Sequence record: PQ826432.1
Strand: one strand, 5' to 3'
Length of the DNA stretch: 61,452 nucleotides
Source: a phage
Of the stretch, positions 23,401-51,338 are shown piece after piece. How positions within the stretch are numbered: position 1 is the stretch's first letter; every line of letters begins with the position of its first letter. The notes beneath the pieces are model-generated. The model was given only the letters and a program-made list of their open reading frames with translations. It was not told where the DNA came from and made no database searches. The translations under genes were made by a program, and so were the position numbers.

Positions 23401-23865
23401 TTAAAAACCCTCAAACGATATTGTATCAACGCCAAGAAATGCACATGTGGTATGCTTGATTGCTAGCTCGATAGCTTCGCGTGCGCTTGCACCAGCAGCT
23501 AGAGCACCCGCAGCAAACACGCAGCCACTGCCATCCGACCCCCATCCATCTAGCATGGGTTCGCTCAAAGTACCATCATTATAAATAAAATGGCAAGTAC
23601 CTTCCGGAGTAACAGCAAGACCGCAAGTTTGCCCATAATCGTCATCTTTGCTGTAAACTTTAATATCTGGGAACTTAACAGGCTCAGGACTATTAAAATA
23701 ACGCAGCACTTGGTCAGTGAATGCAGTCAAACCGCACAAGCCCAGCAAGAAGCGTCCACGATGTCCATTTACGCTGTGAACTTTCTTATAAGCAGTCACA
23801 GCTTCCCCGCGCATAACTCCACGGTCCGCAGCTAATACTTTTCCATCGTAAGCAATGGTTGTCAT
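23401..23865 (-). CDS. HslV-like Ntn-hydrolase peptidase (proteasome beta-type)
   Basis: N-terminus MTTIAYDG with Thr2; GLCGLTAF and GSDGSGCVFAAGALAAG align by eye to HslV GFAGGTADAF and GSGGPYAQAAARAL. Confidence 0.55.
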   Translation of the reverse strand: MTTIAYDGKVLAADRGVMRGEAVTAYKKVHSVNGHRGRFLLGLCGLTAFTDQVLRYFNSPEPVKFPDIKVYSKDDDYGQTCGLAVTPEGTCHFIYNDGTLSEPMLDGWGSDGSGCVFAAGALAAGASAREAIELAIKHTTCAFLGVDTISFEGF

Positions 23866-24109: not shown

Positions 24110-24532
24110 TTAATTAAGCACAATCTCAACGTCTTTAACCCAAGTATGAATGATAAATGCTCCTGGCTGTTCAGGATCTTGATCCGGGCCAACGTAGAAC
24201 TTTTTACCTTCCCAACCTTTAATCGGGTCATGTACAATAAACTTGTGATTAGTTGTATCGATCACAACCTGATGCAGTGCTCCAGGAACATTGAGACTTG
24301 GGACAGTGCACAAAAACAAACCACCCATGCATATAGTTTCACGCCCACCGCCTACAGAACAGATGTGGTCAACATTATTTTGTACTAGATATTCGGAAAT
24401 TGTTATTTCCCAGTTGTTATAATAACGACTATGAAATTCCGCAATTACTTCTTCTACAGGTCTATTAAGGATCATTGCCAAACACGCAGAAACGCATGTA
24501 TTTAAAGTTGGCTGTTTGACATGTTTAATCAT
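24110..24532 (-). CDS. putative papain-like cysteine peptidase (C39-like)
   Basis: QPTLNTCVSACLAMIL resembles the C39 Cys motif; downstream His (HQVVID). Confidence 0.4.
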   Translation of the reverse strand: MIKHVKQPTLNTCVSACLAMILNRPVEEVIAEFHSRYYNNWEITISEYLVQNNVDHICSVGGGRETICMGGLFLCTVPSLNVPGALHQVVIDTTNHKFIVHDPIKGWEGKKFYVGPDQDPEQPGAFIIHTWVKDVEIVLN

Positions 24533-24533
24533 C

Positions 24534-25004
24534 TTATGCCTCGTATATGACTTCCGGCTCGTTATTATAAGGACGCAGCAGCAAACGCGCTACCATCGCC
24601 GTACGCCCGCTTAACCCTTGTAGATGCACAAACCCAACAAACTGGTAGTGACAACCGCGCAGGTGATGCAAGCTCTTAGCGCAATGGCACGCTTCTAAAC
24701 GAAGTGTCTCGCCCGTCTGCCATTTAACCACAATGGTAGAGCTCGCGGTCATGTTAATTTCTACATCACCGATTTCAACCTGAAGACGCAGAACATCTTC
24801 TACAACATTACGGACATAGACAAGGATCTGTGATGTGGGCATAACAATGAGCCCATTCCAGTCCTTCCCGCGACCCAATCCGCAATAACGCGCAAAGTTG
24901 GCTATCAACTGCGTTTCTGTAACCTGTTTTACTTCAAACGACTTCTTCAGTTGGCAGTCTTTGGATTCGTCCATTGCATCAACAATAGTTTTAACGTCAG
25001 CCAT
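24534..25004 (-). CDS. hypothetical protein (156 aa)
   Basis: ORF track. Confidence 0.45.
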   Translation of the reverse strand: MADVKTIVDAMDESKDCQLKKSFEVKQVTETQLIANFARYCGLGRGKDWNGLIVMPTSQILVYVRNVVEDVLRLQVEIGDVEINMTASSTIVVKWQTGETLRLEACHCAKSLHHLRGCHYQFVGFVHLQGLSGRTAMVARLLLRPYNNEPEVIYEA

Positions 25005-25007
25005 TAT

Positions 25008-25400
25008 TTACTCCGCTAATGTGTAAGAAATACCGGATGCTTTAATCCGTCTGTACATATCCATAGTACCAGCTCCGCCCGGAAACACAATAGCGTGATC
25101 TGGTTTAGGATCAGTATCCAGCATTAATTGATTACGGTAAGCGCCCGCTTGGGCATTATAAGCACCTCTGGCGTTATACCGTATCTTAGTATTTGGAAGC
25201 GAAAGATTGTCCCACGGTGCAGGAAACGCCTCCGTCTTAATACCGTTCCGCTCCGCCCAATGTGCGCAAATGCGGTCAACACCGTCAGCGTCACCGTGGC
25301 GAAGTGTGGTTATCCTTCTTTGCATATGCAGCTTATCCAACTGAGCGTAAATATACTCCACATGCTTAAAATCTCGACCTCCGGTGACGACTAATAGCAT
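25008..25400 (-). CDS. SLOG-family protein (DUF2493 / YspA-like)
   Basis: motifs VVTGGRDF, HGDADGVD, FPGGAGT typical of the family. Confidence 0.55.
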   Translation of the reverse strand: MLLVVTGGRDFKHVEYIYAQLDKLHMQRRITTLRHGDADGVDRICAHWAERNGIKTEAFPAPWDNLSLPNTKIRYNARGAYNAQAGAYRNQLMLDTDPKPDHAIVFPGGAGTMDMYRRIKASGISYTLAE

Positions 25401-25467
25401 TATTTCTTCTCCATCGGTTTCAGCATTTCGTCAATAAAACCTTTCCAATATTTGATATTTTCTTCAA

Positions 25468-28741: not shown

Positions 28742-28814
28742 GTTTTCTTATACACTGCTCATCATTACGGTGGGCAGTAATAAGCAAACTAACATTAACG
28801 AAAGGAGCTATACC

Positions 28815-29429
28815 ATGTCTAAAGTAACTCACCGCGAACAGGACAAAATGCGCTACACCATGAAAACGAATGCACGCCGCGCTCTGAAGACCCGCTGGGG
28901 TCAGGTTGCACGCGACGCACACGAACAGTTAATCCATCAGGACGATATTGGTTTTTACATCATCGAAAAGGAAGTCCTTCAGGTTCTGCGCGAGCACGAA
29001 AAAGCGCAACAGCCCGAGCAGAAAGTCCCAGCACCGACCGCCGCGCCAGCTGCTAGCGTCTCGGTACTGCGCCCGATGGTAAATCCGGAAATTGTCAAAA
29101 GCTGCCTCGAATCTCTGGAGCAGGAGGAAGAGAAAGATATGAAACACGCAAAAGCTGCCACGCAGGTTTCTGAAATCAAAATTGAAGAGCCAAAAGCTGC
29201 CTTGCCAAAACAAGATGCAAAAGCTGCTCGCTGCGATTTCAAAAATGGCGCTCGCAAGCCGCTCAAAGGAAAAACTGCCGAAGTGTGGGCAATGGGTGAC
29301 AAGCTTCTGAAGGAACTGGGCCGCACGCCGGAGCTGAAAGAGATGAAAGCTGCAATGCCTTCTTACAACGGGACGACGGTAGCCATTCAGTTCTACGCCT
29401 GGCGCAAATATAACGGCCTGGACGCATAA
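28815..29429 (+). CDS. hypothetical protein (about 204 aa)
   Basis: ORF track 28770..29429; ATG 28815 with AAAGGAG SD. Confidence 0.5.
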   Translation: MSKVTHREQDKMRYTMKTNARRALKTRWGQVARDAHEQLIHQDDIGFYIIEKEVLQVLREHEKAQQPEQKVPAPTAAPAASVSVLRPMVNPEIVKSCLESLEQEEEKDMKHAKAATQVSEIKIEEPKAALPKQDAKAARCDFKNGARKPLKGKTAEVWAMGDKLLKELGRTPELKEMKAAMPSYNGTTVAIQFYAWRKYNGLDA

Positions 29430-34250: not shown

Positions 34251-34475
34251 TTAGTTGAGATAGTAATCATCGACGTCGTACCTTGCCATAATTTCGGATG
34301 CTTCCGCTGCACTTTCCGCTTCTTCATAAGCTTGCTCAGCGTCGTCATAAGTACCGTAATACATCCAACCTTCACCCATTGGGCGGATATATGCTTCAAA
34401 TTTACCAGTACGCTGGTGACGTACAACTTTATAATCCACGCCCATTGTGCTATATACTTTATTCAGCATGACCAT
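34251..34475 (-). CDS. hypothetical acidic protein (74 aa), antisense to the surrounding block
   Basis: ORF track; strong SD GGAGGA 8 nt upstream; convergent with primase gene. Confidence 0.45.
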   Translation of the reverse strand: MVMLNKVYSTMGVDYKVVRHQRTGKFEAYIRPMGEGWMYYGTYDDAEQAYEEAESAAEASEIMARYDVDDYYLN

Positions 34476-37112: not shown

Positions 37113-37175
37113 GTCTTGACCTGTCACATGGATGTGCTACTATACATACATCGAAACACAACAGAGGACAGAAAA

Positions 37176-37586
37176 ATGTTCGACGCGGATAAAGCTGTAC
37201 AAGCAACAGAAGCAGATGTAATTGAATGGTATAAAACTAAAGCGGAATTGCAGAAGCTGCAAGCTCGTGAGCGAGCACTCCGTGATAAGATTATTAAGTC
37301 CTATTTCCCAGCGCCGTCTGAGGGGACTAATAAAGTTGAAATTACTGGCGGGGTTATGAAAATGACTCACAAGATTGATCGTAAGATTGATCTTCAAAGC
37401 CTTAACGGAATCCTGGGCGATCTGATTAAAGTTGGTGTTGACGTTGATCAGCTTGTGGAAAATAAACCTGTATTGAAAGTTGCGGCTTGGCGTAAACTTA
37501 CAGCGGAGCAAGCCGCAGTCTTCAACCAGTGCGTTGAATCTAAAGTTGGTTCCGCGTCTCTGGAAATTGTTCCAAATAAAGCTTAA
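37176..37586 (+). CDS. hypothetical protein (136 aa)
   Basis: ORF track 37116..37586; ATG 37176 with AGAGGA SD. Confidence 0.45.
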   Translation: MFDADKAVQATEADVIEWYKTKAELQKLQARERALRDKIIKSYFPAPSEGTNKVEITGGVMKMTHKIDRKIDLQSLNGILGDLIKVGVDVDQLVENKPVLKVAAWRKLTAEQAAVFNQCVESKVGSASLEIVPNKA

Positions 37587-38706: not shown

Positions 38707-39330
38707 ATGAGAGTAACAATTATTTCTGATGCAAGTTTTTGCCCAAATACAAAAGCCGCAGGCTATGGTGGATGGGTAGTTTGTAACCGTGGAAATAATG
38801 CTAACGGTGGTCCATTACGCGGTGCTCCGGATAACAATGCAGCCGAAACAATGGCAATTTGTAATGTCATTTGGGAAGGATTGAAAGCTAATTTGATTCA
38901 ATCGGGGGATCATCTAATCGTCCAAACAGATTGTTCAACTGCTATTAAAGTGTATAAAGAGGCAAGCTGGAAAAGCGAACAGGAAGGTACAGCTTTCAAA
39001 TGGTTGAACGATCAACTTCGTAAATATAACCTTACTATTGAGTTTCGCCACGTTAAAGGTCATACAAGTAATCAGGACCAGCGTAGCAAAGCTCAAAGAT
39101 TTTGTGATGAACGTGCGCGTTCTGCTATGCGGTTGGAAAGAAGCAAAATTCGTTTGCAGGAATGCAAAGATCTTATTTCCGAAGCAAAGAAAAAGGAAAA
39201 CAGACCTAAAAAGGGTAGCGGACATTTACGCCGTAATACCCGTATGAAAGAGAAAGCTCAAAAAGCTGCAATACTTTTAGAACGTTGCGGTATACGCAGC
39301 AGTTCCCATCAACATGATTATTATGAATGA
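38707..39330 (+). CDS. ribonuclease H-like protein
   Basis: IISDASF..GYGGW start, acidic residues and VKGH spaced as in RNase H. Confidence 0.55.
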   Translation: MRVTIISDASFCPNTKAAGYGGWVVCNRGNNANGGPLRGAPDNNAAETMAICNVIWEGLKANLIQSGDHLIVQTDCSTAIKVYKEASWKSEQEGTAFKWLNDQLRKYNLTIEFRHVKGHTSNQDQRSKAQRFCDERARSAMRLERSKIRLQECKDLISEAKKKENRPKKGSGHLRRNTRMKEKAQKAAILLERCGIRSSSHQHDYYE

Positions 39331-39338
39331 GGTTAACA

Positions 39339-40253
39339 ATGGCATTCAAACCACATTTAGCGACTGACGCGGTTGAAGAAAAGATTAAGTTTCCGTGCTG
39401 CATACTGCCTAAAATTGACGGTGTGCGCGGTTTAAATCCGGACGGGCAAATAGTAGGGCGAAGCTTAAAGCTGTTTAAAAACCGCCATACAAGCGCAATT
39501 TTCAGCGGTCCTCAATACATGGGCTATGACGGTGAGCTTGCGGCAGGGGTGGAGACAGATCCGGACCTGTGCCGTAAAACAACAAGTGCGGTAAACACAA
39601 TTGAAGGTGAACCGTTCCTGAAATGGCACATTTTTGATCTGTGCGCGGAAAGTGTTGCAGAGCTGGGCTATGAAGCACGCTACAACATGATGAAAGACTT
39701 CATAACCACACAGCACGCCAAAGGTGAACTGCTCGACCTGCAAGTTGTGCCAATGTATGTGGTTAAGTCTTTGCAAGAGCTGCTCTACTGGGAAAACATC
39801 TGGCTTGATATGGGTTATGAAGGTATTATTATCCGCGATCCTGAAAAGCCTTATAAGCATGGGCGAGGTACAGTTCGCGAAGGTGGATATCTTCGTATTA
39901 AACGCTTTATTCAGGAAGACGCTATTGTCCTCGATATTATTGAGGGTGAAACTAATCTTAATGAAGCTACCGTTAACGAGCTGGGAAGGACTACACGATC
40001 TTCACATCAGGAAAATAAAGTTCCTAACGGTATGATCGGGACGCTTGTTTGTAAAGACGTTAAGACGGGCAATACAATCAACGTTAGTCCTGGTAAACTA
40101 ACGCAAGAGGATAAGATTTATTATTGGAATAACCCTGACAAGATTAAAGGTCGGACTATTTCATATAAACACTTTCCTCATGGTGTTAAAGATAAACCGC
40201 GTTTTGCTAACTTTATGCATTTCCGCGATGAAAGTGATCAGGCTTTAGATTAA
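39339..40253 (+). CDS. ATP-dependent DNA ligase
   Basis: adenylation motif KIDGVRG; start moved to ATG 39339 with GAGG SD. Confidence 0.7.
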   Translation: MAFKPHLATDAVEEKIKFPCCILPKIDGVRGLNPDGQIVGRSLKLFKNRHTSAIFSGPQYMGYDGELAAGVETDPDLCRKTTSAVNTIEGEPFLKWHIFDLCAESVAELGYEARYNMMKDFITTQHAKGELLDLQVVPMYVVKSLQELLYWENIWLDMGYEGIIIRDPEKPYKHGRGTVREGGYLRIKRFIQEDAIVLDIIEGETNLNEATVNELGRTTRSSHQENKVPNGMIGTLVCKDVKTGNTINVSPGKLTQEDKIYYWNNPDKIKGRTISYKHFPHGVKDKPRFANFMHFRDESDQALD

Positions 40254-46926: not shown

Positions 46927-47634
46927 ATGAATATTAATCAACAAGCTCCCGAGTCTCGTTCTAAAGAAAACGATATGTATTTAGACGTGCATTCGGTATT
47001 CTCTACCATTCAGGGTGAAGGGCCATTCTGCGGCCAACCTGCTGTATTTGTGCGACTTGCTGGGTGTAACCTGCAATGTCCGGGCTGTGATACTGACTAT
47101 ACTGTAGGTCGTTCTCTTTATCACATTGTTGATATCGTGCGTTTAATCGAAAGCCGTAAGCTGGAATCAGGCAATAGCACCTCACTTGTGGTTATTACTG
47201 GGGGTGAACCGTTCCGTCAGCAAATTAACCCGTTTATTGAACAACTGTTATCGCGGGGCTATTTGGTGCAAATCGAAACTAATGGGTCTATGCCTTTACC
47301 TAAGAACTTTTCCCAGTTGCCTGTGATTGTATGTAGTCCCAAGACCTCAAAGATTCATCCTTCTGTGCTGTACCGCGCTAATGCATTTAAATATGTACTT
47401 AAAGCGTGCTGTGTAAATGTGGAAGACGGTTTACCGCTTCAGGCATTGGATCATCAAGCTACGCCATTTATCGCTAGACCTCCGAAGGGTTTCAAGGGTA
47501 AGATATATTTACAGCCAATGGACGAGCAGGATGAAGACCTTAACCACAGTAATATCCAAGCGGTTGTCCAAAGCTGTATGAAACACGGGTACACGTTGCA
47601 GCTTCAGGTCCACAAATATATCGGGGTGGAATAA
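46927..47634 (+). CDS. queE: 7-carboxy-7-deazaguanine synthase (radical SAM)
   Basis: CNLQCPGC cluster, ITGGEP motif; strong SD GAGGAG. Confidence 0.75.
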   Translation: MNINQQAPESRSKENDMYLDVHSVFSTIQGEGPFCGQPAVFVRLAGCNLQCPGCDTDYTVGRSLYHIVDIVRLIESRKLESGNSTSLVVITGGEPFRQQINPFIEQLLSRGYLVQIETNGSMPLPKNFSQLPVIVCSPKTSKIHPSVLYRANAFKYVLKACCVNVEDGLPLQALDHQATPFIARPPKGFKGKIYLQPMDEQDEDLNHSNIQAVVQSCMKHGYTLQLQVHKYIGVE

Positions 47635-47933
47635 TGCGTGTATTAAGTCAGGTTGTGCATACTAAAGAAGTTGAATACTTTGGTAATAAGCTTGATGTCC
47701 CTGAATGGGTACGGTGGCTGGCTACGGATCAAGACGGTACAGTTTACGGATTCGAGTATGAGCCAACGTTGATGGACATTGAAACTAAATGGACATCATA
47801 CTGGGAAGATGATAACTTTTGTGAAATGGCAGAAGTTGACCTCGAAGGTATGGATTATAGACAAACATTAGTGAAGGTGAAAAGAAATGATCACTTTGGA
47901 AGAAGCGAAACAGCATCAGGAAATGATTACTGA
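47634..47933 (+). CDS. hypothetical protein (99 aa)
   Basis: ORF track. Confidence 0.4.
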   Translation: MRVLSQVVHTKEVEYFGNKLDVPEWVRWLATDQDGTVYGFEYEPTLMDIETKWTSYWEDDNFCEMAEVDLEGMDYRQTLVKVKRNDHFGRSETASGNDY

Positions 47934-48099
47934 GCTGGTAGAAAAACTTAATTCTTCAATTGCTCACGCTACTATGCAAGGTGTGCATGTAGAATTAGAT
48001 ATTAATCACGTTAGCACAATTGGAGCTCGCAATCATCCAATTGTAATGTCTAACGTAACAATCAACCCTTGTAATATTAAAGGTGAAGTAAATGAATGA
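47887..48099 (+). CDS. hypothetical protein (70 aa)
   Basis: ORF track; overlaps upstream ORF end. Confidence 0.3.
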   Translation: MITLEEAKQHQEMITELVEKLNSSIAHATMQGVHVELDINHVSTIGARNHPIVMSNVTINPCNIKGEVNE

Positions 48100-48280
48100 A
48101 GAAACTGTAATCCTTATGCAGAAAATTCAACGTTTACAAGACGAGTTGAATGACGCTATTTGTCGTGCTGCATCCAAGAAAATACATTCGGAGCTTGAGA
48201 TACACCAGCGTCAGGTAACCTCTGAAGCTGTAGTTGAACAAGTAGTCATTAACCTTAATATTAGCCTTAAAGGTTTCTAA
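48092..48280 (+). CDS. hypothetical protein (62 aa)
   Basis: ORF track. Confidence 0.3.
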   Translation: MNEETVILMQKIQRLQDELNDAICRAASKKIHSELEIHQRQVTSEAVVEQVVINLNISLKGF

Positions 48281-48281
48281 A

Positions 48282-48989
48282 ATGAATAAATTAGATAAAC
48301 TGGTATTCCCTGTAAAAAATCATAACTCCGCCGTTGTGGTCCTGTCTGGCGGCCAGGACAGCGTGACCTGTTTAGGTCTTGCACTTAATAACTATGATAA
48401 GGTTTACGCTATTGGTTTTGCATACGGTCAACGTCACACTGTGGAATTGGCTTGCGCTGAACAGATATGTAAAGAGCACGATGTCCCATTTGTTGTCTTT
48501 GAATTACCTGCTTTGAAACAGATTGGTAATAGTGCTTTAATCGGGAACGAAGGTGATGTTAACGAACATCACGAACAGCACAACAACCTTCCGGCAAGCT
48601 TTGTGCCAAACCGTAATGCGCTTTTCCTGACTACCGCGCACGCCTACGCGCAGAAAGTTGGCGCCAGATATGTGGTTACAGGCGTTTGTGAAACAGACTA
48701 TAGCGGTTATCCGGATTGCCGCCAGCAGTTTGTAGACCTGCTTGAAGCTACATTAAACGTTGGATATGAAACAGATATTCATTTCGTTACCCCGCTTATG
48801 CGTTTAAATAAAGCAGAAACGTTTGAGCTGGCGGATAAGGTTGGTTTCTTAACCACAGTGATTGAGCAGTCCCATACTTGCTATAATGGCGTCCGTCGTA
48901 CTCTGCATGACTGGGGATATGGTTGCGGTGAATGTCCTGCGTGCAAACTGCGTGCTAAAGGGTACAGCGAATTTATTAGCAAAGCTTGA
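48282..48989 (+). CDS. queC: 7-cyano-7-deazaguanine synthase
   Basis: PP-loop SGGQDS; C-terminal Cys4; no amidotransferase domain. Confidence 0.8.
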   Translation: MNKLDKLVFPVKNHNSAVVVLSGGQDSVTCLGLALNNYDKVYAIGFAYGQRHTVELACAEQICKEHDVPFVVFELPALKQIGNSALIGNEGDVNEHHEQHNNLPASFVPNRNALFLTTAHAYAQKVGARYVVTGVCETDYSGYPDCRQQFVDLLEATLNVGYETDIHFVTPLMRLNKAETFELADKVGFLTTVIEQSHTCYNGVRRTLHDWGYGCGECPACKLRAKGYSEFISKA

Positions 48990-49109
48990 TCTTACAGCGA
49001 AAACCGCACCGCTAGCGCATTGTTTAGGGTGCGGGAACCCAACTATACTACTAAAGCTTTTAAACCCAACAACCAGCGAATAACGCTGTTAAAACTGGAG
49101 AACAAAAGT

Positions 49110-49589
49110 ATGAAATTTATCGTCGCTTATCTGGCTGCAATTACATTCGTAAACCTGGGCTTTTCCTACCTTCCAATGCTTAATACGCCGCTTGGCGTGG
49201 TCCCGATGATGGCTTTCTTTGTAGGTATTATCTTTGTGTTGCGTGACTACGCACAGCGTAACGCTGGCAAAGGCGTTATCCCTGCAATGATTGTGGGTTG
49301 CATTCTTAGCTGGGTATTTGGAGATCCTGCTGTTGTAGTTGCATCCGTTGCATCCTTTGCTCTTAGCGAGTTTGCGGACTATGCGGTATACACGATTACT
49401 AAGAAGCCATTTCATCAACGTGTATTTATTAGCTCTTTGGTAGCTGTACCAATTGACTCCATTGTGTTCTTAAGTATTATAGGTATTGTTAATCCGGGAT
49501 CAATGGTAGCAATGAGCTTAAGTAAGTTCACAGCATCTGCCATCCTTTGGGTTGTTTATGAAGTTCATTCACGTACAGCGAGAGCGTAA
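49110..49589 (+). CDS. membrane protein, possible YhhQ-like queuosine-precursor transporter
   Basis: ORF track 49020..49589; ATG 49110 with GGAG SD; multi-TM with SEFADYAVYT; location inside que cluster. Confidence 0.4.
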   Translation: MKFIVAYLAAITFVNLGFSYLPMLNTPLGVVPMMAFFVGIIFVLRDYAQRNAGKGVIPAMIVGCILSWVFGDPAVVVASVASFALSEFADYAVYTITKKPFHQRVFISSLVAVPIDSIVFLSIIGIVNPGSMVAMSLSKFTASAILWVVYEVHSRTARA

Positions 49590-49591
49590 AA

Positions 49592-50182
49592 ATGAAAGAT
49601 AATCTTAATAAAATTTGGCACCAGCACGATGGGAAAGGAATGCCAATCTTTCTTCGCAATGAAAAGTTTGAAGTTCGTTTGCGCAACGGCACACACGTTA
49701 AGAATCTATTACATGGATGGGACTGGGCTATAGAAGGGCGTTCGGCTATGGATGAGAATAGCCCTTATAAAATTCAAGATATTATAGCCTGGCGATATAT
49801 CGTTGCGGATGATTACGTCAAACAAGCCCAGGAAAATACTCGCTCCGGAGTGTATCATCACCCTTCTAGTGAAATAAGCATAAGTAATACATTTAATGGT
49901 GCAGTTTTTACGAAATATGAACCATCTAAAATTCCCATGAATAAATATCAGAGAATTATTTATGGTAAAGATCAAAACGGTAATGTTGTAAAATGCATCG
50001 TGGACGTGTATGATGTCTTGGAAGCTTGGAAAACAACTAACCCAGCTTTACAACATTTGATTAAAAAGGCGTTGCAGCCTGGCGAACGCGGTCATAAAAG
50101 TCTGGTAGAAGACTTGAAAGATATTATTGCATCCGCACAGCGTGCGTTAGAAATTGAACAGTCTAAAGAGGTATTAAAATGA
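49592..50182 (+). CDS. hypothetical protein (196 aa)
   Basis: ORF track. Confidence 0.45.
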   Translation: MKDNLNKIWHQHDGKGMPIFLRNEKFEVRLRNGTHVKNLLHGWDWAIEGRSAMDENSPYKIQDIIAWRYIVADDYVKQAQENTRSGVYHHPSSEISISNTFNGAVFTKYEPSKIPMNKYQRIIYGKDQNGNVVKCIVDVYDVLEAWKTTNPALQHLIKKALQPGERGHKSLVEDLKDIIASAQRALEIEQSKEVLK

Positions 50183-50703
50183 GCTATACAGTAATTCGTT
50201 CACATGAAATTTGCGCAGGACATCGTGTTGTAGGCCACGAAAGCAAATGTCGCCACCTGCACGGTCACAACTATAAGTTTCACTTTAAGGTTGCACCGAA
50301 ACATGGATGCGGAAAAGTAGTGACACGAGGAAAGCTGGTTGAGGACGGACTGGACAACGTTGGGCGCGTGATAGACTTTAGTGTGGTTAAAACTACGCTG
50401 TGTCAGTGGTTGGAAGATAATTGGGATCATAAGTTCCTGCATTGGGAACATGACAGCGTAATTAATTCACTTATTGTTGTTGCATCAACTGAGTTCGCAC
50501 GTGAAAATAATCTAGTAAAGGATGAAGATTATGATCCTTTCGTTGATTCACTGGTAGCTCTACCATTCAACCCAACTGCGGAAAACTTAGCTGCATATAT
50601 GGTTGACGTGATTGGTCCTCAATTACTTGACCAGTATGGTGTTGAACTTGTAGAATGCACCATTGAAGAAACGTCCAAATGCCATGTTAACTATTGCAAA
50701 TGA
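50179..50703 (+). CDS. queD: 6-carboxy-5,6,7,8-tetrahydropterin synthase
   Basis: CRHLHGHNY motif (Cys-x3-HGH). Confidence 0.75.
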   Translation: MSYTVIRSHEICAGHRVVGHESKCRHLHGHNYKFHFKVAPKHGCGKVVTRGKLVEDGLDNVGRVIDFSVVKTTLCQWLEDNWDHKFLHWEHDSVINSLIVVASTEFARENNLVKDEDYDPFVDSLVALPFNPTAENLAAYMVDVIGPQLLDQYGVELVECTIEETSKCHVNYCK

Positions 50704-50729
50704 TTGACCACACAAGGAAACTGCAAACC

Positions 50730-51338
50730 ATGTCTAAATATAGTATTAATAGTGAAGGTGTTCAATTCCGTATTGCTAACGCTGTGCGTACTTTACTATC
50801 CCAAATTGAAGTTAGCGCGGTTCTGCGCCCAGGGCTGGAGGAGACTCCAGATCGTGTAGCTAAAGCTTATGCTACATGGTTTAGCGGTTACGATGTAGAT
50901 ATTGCTGGTCTGTTTAAAACCTTTGAGGATGGGGCGGAAAACACCAATGAAATGGTCATAGTCCGTGATATTCCTGTATACAGTCATTGTGAGCATCACA
51001 TGGCCCCTATCATCGGTCATGCTGTTGTGGGTTATGTCCCCAATGGGAAGATCGTTGGGCTCAGTAAGCTGTCTCGCGTTGTGGATGCTTTTAGTCGTCG
51101 CTTGCAAGTTCAGGAACGTCTTACTAATCAGATTGCAGACGCTATTGAAGAGCATTTAAATCCGAAAGCTGTATGCGTTTATATTGACGCCAAACATATG
51201 TGCATGGAGTCGCGCGGTGTTAAGCAGGTATGCGGCAGCTCTACTATTACCAAAGCGTTCCGGGGCGCTACAGAACTGTGGCATGGTAGCGATATTGGCA
51301 AAGAATGGCGCCGGGAGTTTCTCGAAGCTTGTAAATAA
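50730..51338 (+). CDS. folE: GTP cyclohydrolase I
   Basis: ETPDRVAKAY, SHCEHH, GLSKLSR, QVQERLT motifs; start moved to ATG 50730. Confidence 0.85.
   Translation: MSKYSINSEGVQFRIANAVRTLLSQIEVSAVLRPGLEETPDRVAKAYATWFSGYDVDIAGLFKTFEDGAENTNEMVIVRDIPVYSHCEHHMAPIIGHAVVGYVPNGKIVGLSKLSRVVDAFSRRLQVQERLTNQIADAIEEHLNPKAVCVYIDAKHMCMESRGVKQVCGSSTITKAFRGATELWHGSDIGKEWRREFLEACK

Follow-up and report, generated by a model that had tools for sequence, protein, structure and literature searches.

The gene considered here raises the question of how a protein built around a nucleotide pocket could defeat a STAND sensor-nuclease. It lies in a window (the whole stretch of DNA that was analysed; 61,452 nucleotides, sequence record PQ826432.1) that comprises the full genome of a Seuratvirus (Queuovirinae; CAjan/Seurat-type phages of E. 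coli), with ~90–94% DNA identity to several deposited phages. A preliminary description, made from the sequence alone, had singled out a 130-aa protein with GGRDF, HGDADGVD and FPGGAGT motifs, regarded it as a standalone SLOG-domain protein and possible binder of a signalling nucleotide, and suggested that it might sequester a host immune signalling nucleotide in the manner of a sponge. The gene and its apparent start signal are as follows.

25008..25400, minus strand: SLOG gene, encoding a 130-aa YAcAr-family protein with an ATG start (open reading frame, Pfam and AF2 model).
25409..25412, minus strand: GGAG, Shine-Dalgarno-like, 8 nt 5′ of the ATG of the SLOG gene (read from the sequence).

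All three quoted motifs are present in the reading frame, with GGRDF at residues 7–11, HGDADGVD at residues 35–42, and FPGGAGT at residues 106–112. Comparison with three orthologues gave dN/dS values of 0.04–0.09, and the ORF is therefore a real gene under purifying selection; it is a genuine protein-coding gene. It is the counterpart of CAjan gp82, and a tblastn search returned it at 95–99% identity in about 33 deposited phages, these being the closest ones found. The gene sits in a run of small minus-strand genes, mostly without annotation, upstream of the lysis and terminase genes. A scan for promoters and terminators across 22.5–29.5 kb gave nothing above chance.

GenBank labels for the gene vary, and include “GTP-binding domain”, “phosphoribosyl transferase”, “putative DNA binding protein” and “hypothetical”. 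The first two were rejected, because the protein has no P-loop and no PRTase match, and because YAcAr is its only Pfam assignment. That assignment covers residues 3–64 (PF10686; 65.2 bits against a cut-off of 28.2, E 4.9e-18), and the PF10686 model spans the N-terminal half of the protein only. PF10686 is described as the “YspA, cpYpsA-related SLOG family” and was formerly DUF2493. The protein also matches PHROG 289 (E 6.8e-23). No match was obtained in NCBIfam, PADLOC or a PDB sequence search, nor to the Pfam LOG/Lysine_decarbox family (PF03641, at E up to 1) or the Pfam DprA family (PF02481). Going by the PDB sequence search, there is no solved structure for any YAcAr member.

Structure prediction with AF2, based on a 126-sequence alignment, yielded a model with a pLDDT of 97.0 and a pTM of 0.88. 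In the model, five beta-alpha units and a beta-hairpin at residues 73–82 make up a SLOG-type Rossmannoid fold, and the standalone SLOG protein of the preliminary description was thereby borne out. The protein is thus modelled as a small, single-domain Rossmannoid unit, and it is basic (pI 9.1, equal to the family median of 9.1). Four elements form its predicted pocket: a GGR loop after strand 1, a GxAxGxD loop after strand 2, an AGxxRN helix after strand 3, and a FPGGxGTxD loop after strand 4. The near-invariant polar residues of the family fall on the standard SLOG ligand site of the model. The earlier reading of the motifs as a nucleotide-binding feature agrees with this, in that the conserved motifs are predicted to line the canonical SLOG nucleotide pocket. 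The fold matches and their scores were as follows.

YpsA, 2nx2: 11.9
LOG-like TM1055, 1rcu: 11.9
ShosA, 8zva: 11.8
Type II LOG, 5wq3: 10.7
DprA, 3maj: 10.4
MoCo carrier protein, 2iz5: 10.4
ThsA SLOG with 3′cADPR, 7uxs: 10.3

Foldseek returned the same set of matches at E ~1e-3, and the LOG enzymes 1wek and 5wq3 were among the best structural matches.

A resemblance to the P1 anti-restriction protein DarA was also considered. In darA of the P1-like RCS47 (L132, 938–2857), the stretch NIAFPGGAGTEKMVQSMINA resembles the FPGGxGT motif of YAcAr and LOG proteins with an hhalign probability of 84%. DarA was rejected as a homologue: the match is confined to the 20-residue FPGGAGT motif, and Pfam assigns DarA_N and DarA_C but no SLOG domain; profile comparison likewise yielded no full SLOG domain.

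A genetic phenotype is available for a closely related gene. Ojima et al. (bioRxiv 10.1101/2024.04.14.589459; hereafter the DruSM1 preprint) generated a set of knock-outs of DruSM1, a Seuratvirus of 60 kb, and assayed their plating on E. coli DH10B carrying the defence systems of the Gao et al. library (pLG001-034). In the DruSM1 genome (PP596835.1), ORF83 occupies the same position as the SLOG gene, with the ORF84 orthologue 3 nt downstream. The two proteins are identical at 125 of 130 residues (96%, full length) and have the same residues at all conserved pocket positions; the five substitutions, SLOG protein to ORF83, are V14A, H47Q, R78K, D95N and S125P. The junctions of the DruSM1 deletion primers also map, with 1–2 mismatches, to both ends of the reading frame, at 25398–25417 (CCGATGGAGAAGAAATAATG, which includes the GGAG region) and 24997–25031. 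Judged by sequence, the gene at 25008..25400 is the orthologue of DruSM1 ORF83.

According to the DruSM1 preprint, the ORF83 knock-out is viable, and its infectivity on AVAST type III is reduced, with small plaques. AVAST type III is the sole phenotype recorded for this knock-out among the pLG001-034 systems. The preprint lists ORF83 among the confirmed anti-defence genes, and its supplementary table records a cloned ORF83 insert with the result “Anti-AVAST typeIII” in plasmid complementation. The deletion retains the ATG together with the last 7 sense codons and the stop (8 triplets), and the ribosome-binding site of ORF84 is therefore kept. ORF83 has also been entered in the EVADES anti-defence catalogue (10.1101/2025.06.06.658234; hereafter the EVADES preprint). 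The anti-AVAST type III genetics come from one preprint and from phage DruSM1, and the role is carried over by orthology; these data support the view that the SLOG gene would help phages of this lineage to plate on AVAST type III (Avs3) cells.

Avs systems are described as sensing terminase or portal proteins, oligomerising, and activating effectors that are mostly nucleases; AVAST type III (Avs3) is described as a STAND sensor of phage terminase/portal with a DNA-nuclease effector. Avs3 has no known diffusible nucleotide signal. ORF83 is one of several DruSM1 genes, ORF55, ORF72 and ORF84 being others, without which the phage becomes sensitive to AVAST type III, and the sensitised mutants all form small plaques (DruSM1 preprint). 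The same source lists ORF55, an ATP-dependent DNA ligase, as anti-AVAST type III, and reports lower plating on AVAST type III for the knock-out of ORF72, a KfrA_N-like, predicted DNA-binding protein.

These results bear directly on the proposed sponge, in which the SLOG pocket would sequester 3′cADPR, His-ADPR or a cyclic oligonucleotide without turnover and so blunt a Thoeris-, CBASS- or Pycsar-type defence. Of the preliminary proposal, the counter-defence role gains support from the knock-out and complementation of a 96% identical orthologue. The sponge mechanism does not, because the only phenotype concerns AVAST type III, a defence without a known diffusible signal, because equivalents of the LOG catalytic Arg and acidic residue are reported to be kept, and because the family, unlike known sponge families, has enzymes and replication proteins as its fusion partners. 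The binding of 3′cADPR by the SLOG domain of ThsA makes a sponge possible in principle, and the Aravind group had already proposed in 2021–2022 that viral SLOG domains counter ADPr/cADPR-type signals (PMC7824862, PMC9503650). Nevertheless, Pfam and PHROG return YAcAr and PHROG 289 alone and no known sponge family, the fold search is headed by YpsA-, LOG- and DprA-type proteins rather than phage sponges, and the literature found by our searches describes no phage SLOG sponge. Fusions to helicases, a primase zinc ribbon, DciA, NADAR and DUF4326, together with members in giant viruses, fit generic nucleotide chemistry better than they fit a sponge. Neither Thoeris, CBASS nor Pycsar turned up in a text search of the supplementary files of the DruSM1 screen (10.1101/2024.04.14.589459). 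Sequestration is at present the less likely mechanism, and a rather improbable one.

The breadth of the family, which is enriched in phages, is informative as to what the pocket may recognise. A phmmer search of 1.84 billion representatives (50% identity clusters) returned 5,583 clusters at E ≤1e-3, 812 of them at E ≤1e-10, and standalone proteins of 120–150 aa form the majority of YAcAr clusters. With the SLOG protein as tblastn query, 682 of 50,697 phage records were positive, including Kuttervirus, Jedunavirus, Veracruzvirus and many Vibrio, Rhodobacter and Rhizobium phages. Phages of Proteobacteria, Actinobacteria and other groups carry YAcAr proteins, as do giant viruses of amoebae. When plasmids were searched with a family member as query, 31 of 72,556 carried a homologue and most of these were non-mobilizable, and the idea of an anti-defence role for YAcAr in plasmid leading regions was dropped.

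Members share 35–45% identity with one another, with a variable surface and a near-invariant pocket. In the 126-sequence alignment, G36, D42, G86, R89 and N90 are invariant, and G7, G8, R9, A38, G40, W48, A61, W63, A85, M93, F106, G108, G111, T112 and M115 are conserved in ≥90% of the sequences. The family signature of GGR, GxAxGxD, AxW, AGxxRN and FPGGxGTxDM, the positions of which are invariant or ≥90% conserved among 126–138 family members, is complete in the SLOG protein. Position 114 is more variable, with D in ~82% of members and N or H in most others.

That the pocket is so well kept among phage proteins that number in the thousands and have diverged widely, and also in the giant viruses of amoebae, points to a generic small-molecule or nucleotide substrate; such breadth speaks against a single host defence protein as the target. 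It weighs in particular on the idea that the SLOG protein binds Avs3 or masks the large terminase, with the pocket irrelevant to the anti-defence effect. That the ORF83 knock-out phenotype is limited to AVAST type III, and that the cloned gene scored “Anti-AVAST typeIII” (10.1101/2024.04.14.589459), would agree with a direct inhibitor. However, the family is very broad (5,583 clusters, 682 phage records and amoebal giant viruses), and a near-invariant pocket beneath a variable surface points to a conserved small-molecule function, not to an interaction with one fast-evolving host protein. Direct inhibition is accordingly a long shot.

What the pocket might do with a nucleotide has been addressed in the EVADES preprint, where DruSM1 ORF83 is modelled as a LOG-like AMP phosphoribohydrolase with R89, N90, T112 and D114 as key residues. 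In that superposition on the LOG protein Cg1261, R89 corresponds to R115, T112 to T175, D114 to E178, and N90 to K116, and an AF3 cofold of ORF83 with AMP reached an ipTM of 0.9. The near or complete invariance of R9, D42, R89, N90 and T112 across YAcAr supports an enzymatic reading. In the FPGGAGTMD stretch of the SLOG protein, the Asp lies one position before the catalytic Glu of LOG enzymes (LOG motif PGGxGTxxE). As an essential catalytic base, D114 would be odd in sequence terms, with D present in only ~82% of members.

The reading preferred here, at a probability of roughly 45% and thus tentatively, is that the SLOG protein is a nucleotide-processing SLOG enzyme that acts as a non-essential counter-defence factor, with an indirect effect on Avs3. 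Its pocket would bind an adenine-nucleotide-type ligand, for which AMP, a derivative of ADP-ribose and a nucleotide at the end of DNA are the candidates. The ligand would most likely be turned over by LOG-like N-glycosidase/phosphoribohydrolase action instead of being held stoichiometrically. How a nucleotide N-glycosidase might block a STAND nuclease that senses terminase is not obvious. The best guess is an effect by way of nucleotide or DNA metabolism, in which replication and repair would keep ahead of the Avs3 DNase; it is prompted by the ORF55 ligase, which is listed with the same activity, and by the ORF72 deletion, which has the same phenotype. Iyer et al. 2022 describe SLOG domains as strongly predicted, experimentally uncharacterized processors of ADPr derivatives, and a later assay was not found in the literature.

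An enzyme of this kind could also be a mere housekeeping factor. The protein might be a salvage-type NMP nucleosidase conferring a slight fitness gain, and the AVAST type III effect might be synthetic sickness on a leaky defence. [quoted passage not shown] On the other hand, a knock-out phenotype was recorded for AVAST type III alone among the pLG001-034 systems, and the gene is ≥95% identical in all 33 closest phages found, with dN/dS <0.1. On balance, the housekeeping interpretation is improbable.

Fusions and gene neighbourhoods elsewhere in the family repeatedly involve nucleotide and DNA metabolism. Fusions detected in this analysis were DUF4326 with YAcAr (recurrent), NADAR with YAcAr, a DnaG-type (primase) zinc ribbon with YAcAr, and tandem YAcAr; NADAR and DUF4326 are ADPr-processing or phosphatase-like domains. 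Reported fusions join YAcAr to the SF1B helicase HelB of ICP1 and to DciA of Streptomyces, and Iyer et al. 2022 reported SLOG fusions to Macro, NADAR, HTH, HNH, 3′-5′ exonuclease, SF1 helicase and guanylate kinase domains. As for neighbours, the YAcAr gene adjoins DNA polymerase in Jedunavirus, and lies between a DnaB-like helicase and endonuclease VII plus primase in a mycobacteriophage. In Sashavirus, it immediately follows a C5-cytosine methylase and precedes HNH and ParB genes; in a Vibrio phage, it immediately follows an MT-A70 methylase, with a primase nearby.

In the last two cases, the genes overlap. The YAcAr gene of Salmonella phage Sasha (L010, 3501–3896) overlaps the stop codon of the upstream C5-cytosine methylase, and that of Vibrio phage 1.022.O (L011, 3501–3839) overlaps the stop codon of the upstream MT-A70 N6-adenine methylase. 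Such an overlap with a methyltransferase gene in two unrelated phages might point to a connection with DNA modification, or with the SAM by-product SAH. MT-A70 was present in 2 of the 116 YAcAr neighbours scanned.

IMG/VR was scanned for FPGGxGTADM by a degenerate-DNA motif, which yielded 80 YAcAr genes, the 522 neighbours of which were clustered by BLAST. No neighbour family occurred in >8 of the 80 loci, so there is no operon-type YAcAr partner outside Queuovirinae. A Pfam scan of 116 immediate neighbours was dominated by DNA-metabolism proteins, with ≤4 members per family (SF2 helicases, Lar, MT-A70, integrase, PolA exonuclease, HNH, DnaB, VapE, endonuclease VII and UDG), and the top 25 Pfam families in this set included no Macro, NADAR or Nudix. 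A conserved, family-wide partner gene was dropped as a candidate on these counts (≤8 of 80 loci by clustering, ≤4 members by Pfam). Since YAcAr neighbourhoods are heterogeneous, guilt by association is weak.

Replication contexts of this sort, together with the basic pI of 9.1 and the parallel with the ORF55 DNA ligase, would suit a helper resembling DprA or ShosA. The pocket would then bind a nucleotide of ssDNA, and the protein would promote recombination or repair, or travel with the replisome, such that Avs3 cutting is tolerated. A SLOG protein acting against DNA damage has a precedent in ShosA. Against this, the SLOG protein consists of a 130-aa SLOG core alone, with neither the SAM nor the winged-helix extension found in DprA, and it lacks a PF02481 match while keeping a nearly invariant FPGGxGT of the LOG type. 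Profile comparison with DprA structures in the PDB reached just E 0.5–1.9 over ~57–60 residues. In the EVADES preprint (10.1101/2025.06.06.658234), the DprA dimerisation and RecA-binding residues are missing in ORF83, and an AF3 cofold with RecA gave an ipTM of 0.18. A DprA-like helper is therefore unlikely, and an enzyme acting on a nucleotide is preferred to it.

The genes downstream of the SLOG gene form part of the same setting. The order along the minus-strand run is small genes including the SLOG gene, then an HslV-like peptidase gene, lysis genes and terminase.

24534..25004, minus strand: ORF84 orthologue, 156 aa, PHROG 25149, without a Pfam assignment; start 3 nt beyond the SLOG stop codon.
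24110–24532, minus strand: ORF86 counterpart, 140 aa, PHROG 4049.
23401–23865, minus strand: HslV-family peptidase-like gene, PHROG 1040, with a weak Pfam Proteasome match.

The product of ORF84 is a possible functional partner of the SLOG protein. In the DruSM1 preprint, the ORF84 knock-out had the strongest effect on AVAST type III, with an EOP of ~1e-4, and an EOP of 1e-2 on qatABCD. ORF84 could not be cloned for complementation there, and the gene may therefore be toxic. An ORF84-type gene always directly follows the SLOG gene in the Queuovirinae examined; for instance, a Queuovirinae relative keeps this order with 65% identity for the SLOG protein and 56% for the ORF84-like protein. Homologues of ORF84 were found in about 35 Seuratvirus-like phages only. 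The AF2 model of the ORF84 orthologue had a pLDDT of 56.6 and is unusable as a fold lead. Its sequence has an invariant C-H-C...HH..G-C pattern (C106, H107, C108, H113, H114 and C118), the residues of which might be metal ligands.

Two further observations concern this region. DruSM1 ORF86 is one of the few small accessory-region genes that were not deletable, and may thus have an essential or protective role in the host used for rebooting. The HslV-like gene separates the lysis cassette from the small accessory genes, and a proteasome-type protease is unusual for a 60-kb siphophage.

Elsewhere in the window, a 7-deazaguanine (preQ0-type) DNA-modification cluster, as expected in Queuovirinae, extends over 46927–51338.

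46927–47634, plus strand: QueE-like radical-SAM gene.
48282–48989, plus strand: QueC.
49020–49589, plus strand: Vut_1/YhhQ-like membrane protein.
50179–50703, plus strand: QueD/PTPS.
50694–51338, plus strand: FolE.

A link between the SLOG gene and this modification was rejected, as queE, queC, queD and folE are >21 kb away and on the opposite strand. In DruSM1, we take the ORF41–48 region to hold the DNA-modification genes. Deletion of ORF41–48, termed “auxiliary metabolism”, led to BREX and restriction-like sensitivity, which the ORF83 deletion did not (DruSM1 preprint).

The window also holds orthologues of the DruSM1 defence-modulating genes ORF55 (ATP-dependent DNA ligase), ORF58 (Gam-like), ORF65 and ORF72, at 39327–40253 (plus strand), 37116–37586 (plus strand), ~34251–34475, and 28770–29429 (plus strand). 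In DruSM1, ORF58 is anti-Sir2+HerA and anti-DUF4297+HerA and a trigger of retron Ec86, ORF65 is anti-hhe, and ORF72 is anti-BREX I.

A bolder version of the enzymatic reading can be framed, in which YAcAr proteins would be N-glycosidases acting on an unrecognised nucleotide molecule or DNA-linked adduct needed by Avs3-type STAND immunity. The target might be, for example, a small molecule that serves AVAST type III as cofactor or signal, or 5′-adenylated or ADP-ribosylated DNA ends arising from nuclease attack. Very little credence is given to this version. If true, a defence regarded as working by pattern recognition only would have a hidden nucleotide layer, countered by thousands of phages and some giant viruses through one enzyme family.

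The gene, the family, the anti-defence phenotype, the enzymatic hypothesis and the idea of viral SLOG domains as countermeasures to nucleotide signals are all already published, and the finding in this window therefore adds little to them. YAcAr is, however, one of the commoner uncharacterised phage domains. The Seuratvirus orthologues are the only YAcAr group found with a genetic phenotype, and so provide a practical entry point to the function of the whole family.

Among known systems, the fold relatives of the SLOG protein are all distant in sequence. The LOG family (Cg1261, 5WQ3; TT1465, 1WEK; PpnN/YgdH, 9US2) shows 15–21% identity to it, which is without a PF03641 match. LOG proteins are ~200 aa long compared with ~130 aa for the SLOG protein, which carries the beta-hairpin insert at 73–82. 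The SLOG protein also differs from LOG in that its acidic residue is a D at T+2, not universal in YAcAr, and in its GxAxGxD loop of the DprA/YpsA/MoCo-carrier type. YpsA of B. subtilis (2NX2) is 15% identical to the SLOG protein; in Firmicutes it is a cellular factor in cell division and oxidative stress, and the YpsA clade is where Aravind’s group places most viral SLOG domains. The SLOG sensor of ThsA (Thoeris; 7UXS, 3′cADPR-bound), at 11% identity, is part of a host SIR2 effector, whereas the phage protein stands alone. ShosA (8ZVA) is the DprA-like antitoxin of the ShosTA defence, and the SLOG protein lacks the extra domains of DprA and ShosA. Tad1, Tad2, Acb2 and Acb4 are small phage proteins that act against nucleotide-based immunity, as has been proposed for the SLOG protein, and their likeness to the SLOG protein is one of functional analogy only: there is no family match, they are not in the top fold matches, and the phenotype of the orthologue concerns a defence that is not known to signal through nucleotides. 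The closest comparison is DruSM1 (PP596835.1) itself. This phage differs in carrying ORF85 and Druad1 (anti-Druantia), neither of which was found in the window, and the window is therefore distinct from DruSM1; it was in DruSM1 that the activity against AVAST type III had been measured. The two phages share the genus Seuratvirus and the same flanks around the gene, in addition to the 125 of 130 identical residues of its product.
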